10,100 nt of DNA from a virus (IMGVR_UViG_2693429634_000014:1-10100); one strand, 5' to 3'; positions 1-915 are shown, counted from the stretch's first letter. The notes: generated by a model not told the origin, from the sequence alone. A program made the numbers and translations.

Positions 1-244
1 TGGCGGGCAAGGGCTGGTAGTGGCCTGAGAGTAATTCATCCCTGAGGATTTGCAGCTCAACAGCCAGTCTGGCCTGTAGCATTGTTTTGTTCACGCCATC
101 AACGCCGGGGGTATGGGCCCCCTTTGATGAAAGCGTGATCCGCGCCGCTTCAGCCAGCCATTCTGGTTGTGTTATCAGACGCAGCAGCCGTTGAATCCGT
201 AGGGACGGATCGGTGACTGCCCATGTGGCAAGCTTGCGTTGCAT
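1..244 (-). CDS. Group II intron-encoded reverse transcriptase/maturase, N-terminal 81 codons (ORF continues off-window)
   Basis: Minus-strand ATG at 244..242 (alternative TTG at 259..257, 7 nt after GAGGTGA), open to the window edge. Translation MQRKLATWAVTDPSLRIQRLLRLITQPEWLAEAARITLSSKGAHTPGVDGVNKTMLQARLAVELQILRDELLSGHYQPLPA contains the conserved PGVDG and YQP motifs of group II intron IEPs. Not in the ORF track because it has no stop inside the window. Confidence 0.8.
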   Translation of the reverse strand, partial: MQRKLATWAVTDPSLRIQRLLRLITQPEWLAEAARITLSSKGAHTPGVDGVNKTMLQARLAVELQILRDELLSGHYQPLPA

Positions 245-915
245 TTCGCTGATTATCAAAGGTCTTCACCTCGTTAGGTCAGTTAATTCACGTCGCAAAC
301 ACATTCAAACTGCTTCCCTTCGCCATGTAATGGGCTTTCCCCATCGCGGACTACTACGGAAGCTCCGCCAGCCAGCGCGTCATCGGAGCCATGCCCCCTT
401 AACATCCGTCGCTGACCTTCCCCGGTTTACCTGCCTGGACTCAGGCATACTGAGGAGGCTGCCCGTCGCACTCTTTATCCTTGCTTGCCGCAAGTTGGCA
501 GAAGTCAGCAACGCAAGCGTGATAGACGCTGCTGCCCCGGTGTTTCGCATACATGTCAAAACACCTTCGACCGGTAGTGCTTACGTATCACTGCCAGTTC
601 CTCCTGCACGGCCTGTCAGATCACGTAGGCCGTGGTGACGTTTTCAACCCACAGAGGCGGATTAACGGGTTCATGTTCTTCAGCCTTTCAGTACTTAACC
701 TTGAGGATCATCTCGGCTTAGTGATCTCGCCTCAATCCCCGTTGTCAGCGGGTTACATCACCCTGCGGGCATGCCGCAGGTCACTGCCGCTCAGGTTCTC
801 CACCGTCACACCCGGTGGGATTGTTGGGTTTCTCATCGTGAGTTACCGGTTCAATATTCCAGACAGACTCGCGGTTCATTTAAGCATCCATGCCCGCCCT
901 GAACTCCGGGCACAC
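1..915 (-). mobile_element. Group II intron, 5' portion (ribozyme domains I-III plus start of the intron-encoded protein ORF); continues beyond the left edge of the window
   Basis: Seen in sequence: minus strand begins GTGTG (plus 915..911, matching the group II 5' consensus GUGYG) at the exact point where IS629 OrfB homology stops. About 670 nt follow with no credible ORF on either strand (only Arg-rich antisense ORFs 213..638 and 553..924), then an ORF starting at 244 encoding ...SSKGAHTPGVDGVNKTMLQARLAVELQILRDELLSGHYQPLPA, the domain-0 signature of group II intron reverse transcriptases. Established knowledge: E. coli group II introns are typically found inside IS elements. The 3' part (RT, X, domains V-VI) is outside the window. 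Confidence 0.8.

Follow-up and report, generated by a model that had tools for sequence, protein, structure and literature searches.

Evidence that an insert in a prophage IS629 transposase gene is the 5' part of the class A group II intron E.c.I4

Introduction

Ll.LtrB of Lactococcus lactis is the model mobile group II intron, and the gene name 'ltrA' derives from its protein. It resembles the Escherichia coli intron E.c.I4 in having six RNA domains, a reverse transcriptase (RT)/maturase ORF in domain IV and retrohoming by EBS-IBS pairing, but it belongs to class ML, with a IIA ribozyme, and its protein carries DNA-binding and endonuclease (En) domains, whereas the LtrA of E.c.I4 is devoid of an HNH/En domain. 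RmInt1, found in ISRm2011-2 of Sinorhizobium meliloti, is likewise an En-less RT/maturase intron that homes into an IS transposase gene, and its splicing affects expression of the host IS. It differs in being a class D intron with a IIB3 ribozyme and another target IS family, and is likened to E.c.I4 by description. Another E. coli group II intron, E.c.I5 (EcI5), resides on EHEC plasmids, that is, in the mobile DNA of pathogenic strains (Table 2, PMC3522654); it is of class CL/IIB1, possesses an En domain, has another target and is not the element considered here.

E.c.I4 itself, so named in the Zimmerly database, was assigned to ORF class A, lacking the D/En region, by Toro and Martinez-Abarca, who then counted three nearly identical members; the same class is given in Table S2 of PMC3522654. 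Class A is listed as En-less in the literature, and for the surveys of 2013-14 it consisted of three near-identical sequences. E.c.I4 has been described as homing to IS629, IS911, ISEc16 and ISEc31. Like the intron reported here, the known E.c.I4 copies and their Shigella twin S.f.I1 are En-less class A introns sitting at the same homing position in IS3-type transposase genes. The coordinates of the reference copies, including E.c.I4-2b of E. coli E24377A, are available (Table S3, PMC3522654).

Here we analyse a stretch of viral DNA of 10 100 nt (IMGVR_UViG_2693429634_000014:1-10100; hereafter the window), in which a previous sequence-only reading had proposed a group II intron nested in an IS629 element, itself nested in a prophage effector locus. 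Compared with E.c.I4-2b, the host is IS629 in a prophage carrying the effector genes nleB and espO, and only the 5' 40% of the intron is visible.

Results

Identity of the insert

The minus strand of the window from 915 to 1 is almost certainly E.c.I4, a bacterial group II intron of ORF class A with a total length of 2270 nt, of which it holds the 5' 40%; the intron is inserted in the sense direction at its normal homing site in IS629 orfB (Table 1). The intron part of the window shares 913 of 915 nt with E.c.I4-2b (NC_009801 4848623-4850892), the differences falling at intron nt 327 and 341, and E.c.I4-2b encodes the same protein, WP_001189123.1. Over the same 915 bases a single one differs from a full-length copy in strain DETEC-P649 (L001). 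The 5' junction, taken as 1700 nt of IS629 plus insert, recurs at 99.5-99.7% identity in 1355 of 5426 complete E. coli genomes, whose annotation shows a fragment of an IS629 family transposase and, after it, 'ltrA: group II intron reverse transcriptase/maturase'. Given the match to E.c.I4-2b and the recurrence of this junction, the features described here lie far beyond chance, and nothing inside the window contradicts the identification. E.c.I4 at the IS629 site is real yet ordinary: a catalogued retroelement in a catalogued target, and already known. The sequence-only reading had left open which intron this was, and its interpretation is supported and sharpened to a class A intron at the canonical IS629 site, none of the outcomes that it had named as refuting having been encountered.

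Table 1. Positions of the intron features and of the host insertion sequence in the window
Feature	Window position	Strand	Basis or remark
LtrA (RT/maturase), first 81 codons	1..244	-	runs off the window; equals the N-terminus of WP_001189123.1
Beginning of domain IV, directly before the ORF	245..282	-	highly conserved GGUGAAGACCUUUGAUAAUCAGCGAA; helices 29-30
Domain III (intron nt 553-604)	312..363	-	helices 26-28; 99-100% of cells paired, 8 compensatory pairs
Domain II (intron nt 496-549)	367..420	-	helices 23-25; main stem with 8/10 pairs compensatory
Domain I (intron nt 6-495)	421..910	-	consensus fold; helices 1-22, most with compensatory changes
Candidate exon-binding loop 2, UGUAUG (intron nt 363-368)	548..553	-	next hairpin loop; A1 columns 387-393
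Candidate exon-binding loop 1, CGUAAG (intron nt 331-336)	580..585	-	hairpin loop; A1 columns 351-356
Intron 5' end, GUGUG (consensus GUGYG)	911..915	-	sequence; splice site between 916 and 915
IS629 (IS3 family) coding part, 5' exon	916..1656	-	orfA 1656..1330; orfB 138 codons + 1 base (1330..916)
IS3-type programmed -1 frameshift pseudoknot (ALIL), orfA/orfB	1259..1375	-	Rfam RF01497, 119 bits (gathering 50)
Domain V of the complete copy			GAGCCGGAUGCGCUGAAAGGUGCACGUCCGGUUC; expected sequence, beyond the window
IS629 3' exon after intron nt 2270			starts TCAGCACATGGCAGGG...; expected sequence, beyond the window

Intron boundaries and the empty site

Read on the minus strand, the window runs ...GCTGATTTTACTTACG / GTGTGCCCGGAGTTCAGG..., the slash falling between 916 and 915. 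The GTGTG pentamer that the sequence-only reading took for a 5' splice site at 915..911 is indeed present, and a GTGYG start recurs in every row of a 44-row alignment of intron 5' regions and in nearly all of some 60 relatives examined. The same reading had homology to IS629 orfB ending exactly there. It stops at 916, while E. coli strain TB354 continues at this point with uninterrupted IS629.

No complete E. coli genome matches the window better than that of TB354 (L002, NZ_AP038814 916483-928374), which agrees with window 10100..916 (9185 nt) at 100.0% identity and is without the intron. Its empty site reads GATTTTACTTACG/TCAGCACATGG, with the junction TTACG/TCAGC, and this corresponds to the 5' exon of the window joined to the 3' exon seen in L001. 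The empty site leaves a unique intron boundary, GUGUG...CUCUAC, giving 2270 nt (L001 4786-7055), and with the intron start fixed at 915 the window holds intron nt 1-915. The 3' end of the window copy lies outside the window; the end ...CUCUAC, which agrees with the conserved 3' AY of group II introns, was observed in the near-identical full copies, the 3' end being likewise seen in 18 relatives, and in L001 (7055) it coincides with the end of a match to the Rfam Intron_gpII model.

The TB354 prophage has the order tail genes, lom, tail fibre, nleB, truncated espO, IS629, espK, and only two mobile-element differences separate it from the window: the intron, present in the window only, and ISCro1, present in TB354 only. 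The 100% identity of the prophages apart from these two elements indicates that the intron probably entered the window's IS629 in a recent retrohoming event. The two sequences form a clean natural before-and-after pair for such an event. ISCro1 (IS66 family) sits in the tail-fibre C-terminal gene of TB354, where the window has no such element.

The interrupted transposase and its surroundings

Matching genomes annotate the host as 'IS3-like element IS629 family transposase', and the left end of the IS is expected some tens of bases past 1656. The ORF 1330..851 contains the HTH_21 domain of IS3 OrfB and ends at a stop 21 codons into the insert, so that the unspliced product is missing the catalytic core. 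When the exons are joined, an intact OrfB of 296 aa results, with the Pfam domains HTH_21 and rve/rve_3/rve_2, rve spanning residues 126-222. The junction follows the first base of OrfB codon 139, within the rve core; the 5' exon protein ends ...ADFTY + G, so that the conserved Asp of the W..D.TY motif (...WVADFTY) precedes the insertion by four codons and the intron sits where the rve (DDE) catalytic core begins. In E24377A the intron occupies the equivalent codon of another IS3-type gene. Since IS629 is split here, its transposase depends on splicing.

The nesting proposed earlier, a retroelement in an IS in a prophage effector locus, agrees with the sequence context: the window contains the IS629 pseudoknot, followed by nleB, a truncated espO and lambdoid tail genes. 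The espO fragment adjoining IS629 (window ~1712-1891, plus strand) is annotated in TB354 as incomplete, with the N-terminus missing, which suggests that this effector gene was truncated by the IS629 insertion. Because IS629 abuts the N-terminally incomplete espO, the nesting is that of an intron in an IS in an effector gene in a prophage. An intact gene for an NleB-family arginine glycosyltransferase (326 aa, window ~1971-2951, minus strand) adjoins the espO fragment.

A conserved RNA fold upstream of ltrA

Between the splice site and the start codon lie 671 nt (915..245) without a homology-supported ORF, in keeping with the roughly 670 nt of ORF-free structured RNA that had been proposed. Three mechanical ORFs in this region (553-924 and 213-638 on the plus strand, 380-559 on the minus strand) matched no Pfam family at E<=0.1. 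The Rfam models for domains D1-D4 gave no match in the window, either at gathering thresholds or at E<=1, nor in L001 4600-7400, and the whole Rfam scan of the window returned only ALIL and a chance match to CRISPR-DR8 (E=0.42). The missing D1-D4 matches are most likely due to those models not covering class A; the negative Rfam scan of the window is not counted against the intron, since domains V/VI lie outside the window. Scans relying on Rfam would detect no part of this intron clade other than domains V/VI.

The fold was therefore examined by comparison. A search with LtrA of contigs from one genome per species yielded 311 relatives, of which we retained 80 with protein identities of 66-100%; they come from Gamma- and Alphaproteobacteria, Desulfarculaceae, Nitrospirales, Planctomycetota and others, and in nearly all of them GTGYG is found 635-690 nt upstream of the RT start codon. 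Alignment A1 comprises 44 non-redundant 5' regions, namely the window and 43 relatives 58-93% identical to it. Its consensus fold (RNAalifold, 44 sequences) has 153 pairs, 100 of them with compensatory changes. Standard pairs make up 96.7% of cells; shifting the partners by 1-3 columns lowers this share to 34-43%. The covariation score reaches 0.525 (0.08-0.10 in controls), and none of 500 shuffles attained any of the observed pairing measures.

In this modelled fold, 915..245 is assigned to domains I-III and the start of domain IV (Table 1), an assignment based on the expected layout of one large domain, two smaller ones and an invariant run into the ORF. Domain I is closed by a long-range stem (nt 6-9 with 492-495), and the A1 columns at the start of domain IV (693-743) are nearly invariant. 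The covariation-supported fold of class A domains I-III is a by-product of this work which may interest intron specialists.

LtrA and domains V/VI

The ORF starts with ATG at 244, and its 81-codon translation contains SSKGAHTPGVDGV and HYQP, including the YQP element of the N-terminal RT signature noticed earlier. These 81 residues alone match no Pfam family. The full protein, WP_001189123.1, has 502 aa with the RVT_1 (1.4e-34) and GIIM (1.3e-10) domains and YADD at residue 277; only these two Pfam domains were found in it, and no endonuclease/HNH domain. In L001, ltrA (502 aa) precedes the rest of the IS3 transposase gene, and domains V/VI are detected by Rfam RF00029 Intron_gpII at 64.9 bits (gathering 40; L001 6969-7055), the match ending at the deduced 3' splice site.

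RT motifs including YADD, the maturase and domains V/VI were thus read in near-identical copies, the corresponding part of the window copy being outside the window. All the elements that the sequence-only reading proposed to look for in extended sequence, namely RT motifs, YADD, maturase and domains V/VI, occur in copies at least 99.8% identical over the window's part. The covariance-model search it also proposed gave a split result, negative for D1-D4 inside the window and positive for domains V/VI in the extended copy. Those sequence requirements for splicing that are open to checking are all present, the 3' half of the window copy lying off-window.

Prevalence and completeness of copies

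The intron itself was found in 2567 of the 5426 genomes, in near-identical copies at up to 20 places per E. coli genome, and its 3' junction into IS629 in 1259 genomes. Taken against the number of 5' junctions, this means that about 93% of the insertions are complete at both ends, which provides a base rate for the off-window half of the window copy. The many copies, together with the TB354/window pair, are population evidence that points indirectly to mobility; the literature searched yielded no experiments on the splicing or mobility of E.c.I4. In thousands of genomes PGAP already annotates the intron as ltrA. Intron and IS together form a repeat of more than 3.5 kb, a potential source of error in assembly and in the typing of IS elements at EHEC/EPEC-like prophage effector loci.

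Candidate exon recognition loops

Two adjacent hairpin loops in a variable subdomain of domain I have the form NGUANG, the complement of the exon end C-N-U-A-Y-N. Loop 1 can form 6/6 Watson-Crick pairs with the IS629 exon end CUUACG, and loop 2 pairs at 5/6 positions. In the 41 relatives with known exons, each loop covaried weakly with the relative's own exon, matching it better than permuted exons (P ~0.02 for loop 1, P ~0.001-0.008 for loop 2; the permutations ignore relatedness). Loop 1 shows compensatory cases in L060 and L066 (Phe codon) and in L017 and L042 (AGC codon). Among the relatives, Phe UUC exons lie opposite CGAAUG or CGGAUG, and AGC and UGC exons opposite ..UAGC. For loop 2, matches of 7-8 bp occur in several divergent relatives. 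The loop positions facing exon -1 and -5 are paired in only ~40-70% of relatives, and an alignment-free run-length test of loop 1 alone was not significant (P=0.27). Mutual information and column-block permutation scans of the whole alignment gave no clean exon-pairing block, phylogenetic noise being dominant. These comparisons would place exon recognition in this subdomain of domain I, with either NGUANG loop, or both, as a candidate EBS1.

Two other pairings were considered. UGUGGGU (intron nt 263-269), which can pair with the host exons of both IS629 and E24377A, was rejected as EBS1 because its GGGU takes part in a local helix supported by CG/UA covariation (A1 columns 285-287 with 299-301), and because its third position is unpaired in relatives. 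The match of GGUGAUG, in the IC1 internal loop, to exon AUCACC is probably coincidental, both sequences being invariant and part of GGUGAUG being paired in helix 8.

Window position 575 (intron nt 341) is occupied by A, as opposed to G in E24377A and DETEC-P649. The A turns the perfect 7-bp stem of loop 1 (GGCAGUG/CACUGCC) into one with a C-A mismatch, a C-G pair being lost. It is a circulating variant and not an error, since copies 100% identical to the window occur in other genomes.

One target codon across phyla

The relatives (L005-L084, RT 66-100% identical; for example L054 1851-4089, L024 1826-4099 and L055 1819-4102) occupy the same codon of IS3-type DDE (rve) transposase genes in many phyla. 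In ~55 of 60 the 5' exon encodes N-Q-x-W-x-x-D-[IFV]-T-Y plus one base of the next codon. Domains V/VI lie downstream of the ORF in 18/18 relatives checked, and in all 18 the exons rejoin in frame as ...D.TY/x.T..GW.YLA.V.D..SR, at the start of the rve catalytic core; the first base of the 3' exon is T in 17 of the 18.

Discussion

The identification of the window's insert as E.c.I4 has to be weighed against three other explanations. One is that the RT-like ORF belongs to another kind of element, such as a retron, a DGR, an Abi/defence RT or a ribozyme-less group-II-like RT, the GTGTG being a coincidence. It could draw on the fact that just the 81 N-terminal residues are in the window, which by themselves match no Pfam family, and that no Rfam intron model matches there. 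Yet the full protein has GIIM, domains V/VI lie after the ORF both in the extended copy and in each of the 18 relatives, the upstream 671 nt form a covariation-supported multi-domain RNA and the exons rejoin precisely and in frame, so this explanation is exceedingly improbable. We give equally little credence to the idea that 245..915 encodes protein and is not structured RNA, which the sequence-only reading had named as something that would count against it. It can point to mechanical ORFs, two on the plus strand (123 and 141 aa) and one on the minus strand (59 aa). Yet all three lack a Pfam match at E<=0.1, the stretch carries no PGAP gene in matching genomes, and substitutions among the relatives track base-pair covariation and not codons.

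The remaining explanation deserves more attention, although we regard it as unlikely: what the window shows might be the 5' remnant of a defunct E.c.I4 copy, truncated or else inactivated beyond the left edge by a frameshift, a deletion or an inserted IS. Such a remnant could neither splice nor move, and its IS629 would stay permanently inactive. In favour of this, the 3' 60% falls outside the window; fragments of E.c.I4, as well as copies with a disrupted ORF, are on record for several genomes; MLI106K4 (H15) has IS421 inserted near the junction; and 5' junctions (1355) slightly outnumber 3' junctions (1259). This same ratio of 3' to 5' junctions, at ~93%, nonetheless means that most copies are complete. 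Moreover, the window's part is free of frameshifts and stops and shares 99.8-100% identity with copies whose ltrA is intact, and the intron-free TB354 prophage, otherwise 100% identical, implies a very recent insertion with little time for decay.

How a complete copy would act can be proposed from the established group II mechanism. Once IS629 is transcribed, LtrA would bind the intron RNA and assist its lariat splicing, restoring orfB, whose product would otherwise lack the catalytic core. The excised RNA-protein particle would then find intron-free IS3-type transposase genes by EBS-IBS base pairing, in which one or both NGUANG loops may pair with the exon end C-N-U-A-Y-N that encodes Thr-Tyr. 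The RNA would reverse-splice into the DNA and be copied by the RT. In other En-less group II introns, priming on replication-fork strands has been shown, and as LtrA has no endonuclease domain its priming probably proceeds in the same manner.

It may be, though we put this forward tentatively and as the less probable case, that the clade is specialised on a single spot of IS3-type genes, the codon after W..D.T-Y, across phyla, and that it tolerates synonymous variation there through two partly redundant NGUANG loops. Within this proposal the clade-wide targeting is directly observed, while the redundancy of the loops and the lack of a prior description are uncertain. Measured against the 2013-14 surveys, the class A clade and its conserved target seem to extend much more widely, and the literature searched described targeting only for E.c.I4 in four enterobacterial IS types. 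Targeting of the same codon throughout the clade and across phyla may be of interest to intron specialists.

Some individual relatives stand out. Pseudomonas khavaziana has, besides its class A intron, an unrelated group II intron signal (Rfam group-II-D1D4-4, 71.5 bits; L019 4761-4899, minus strand), which lies ~660 nt further downstream and on the other strand. In a Chryseobacterium sp. contig (L011), a Halomonas MAG (L008), Microbacterium (L015) and a Bacillota MAG (L018), all contigs attributed to distant phyla, the RT is 86-99% identical to the E. coli protein, and the 5' exon of L011 reads ...AADVTD, which is not the usual ...TY site. The introns of these four could be recent transfers on mobile DNA, ectopic insertions or contaminant contigs.
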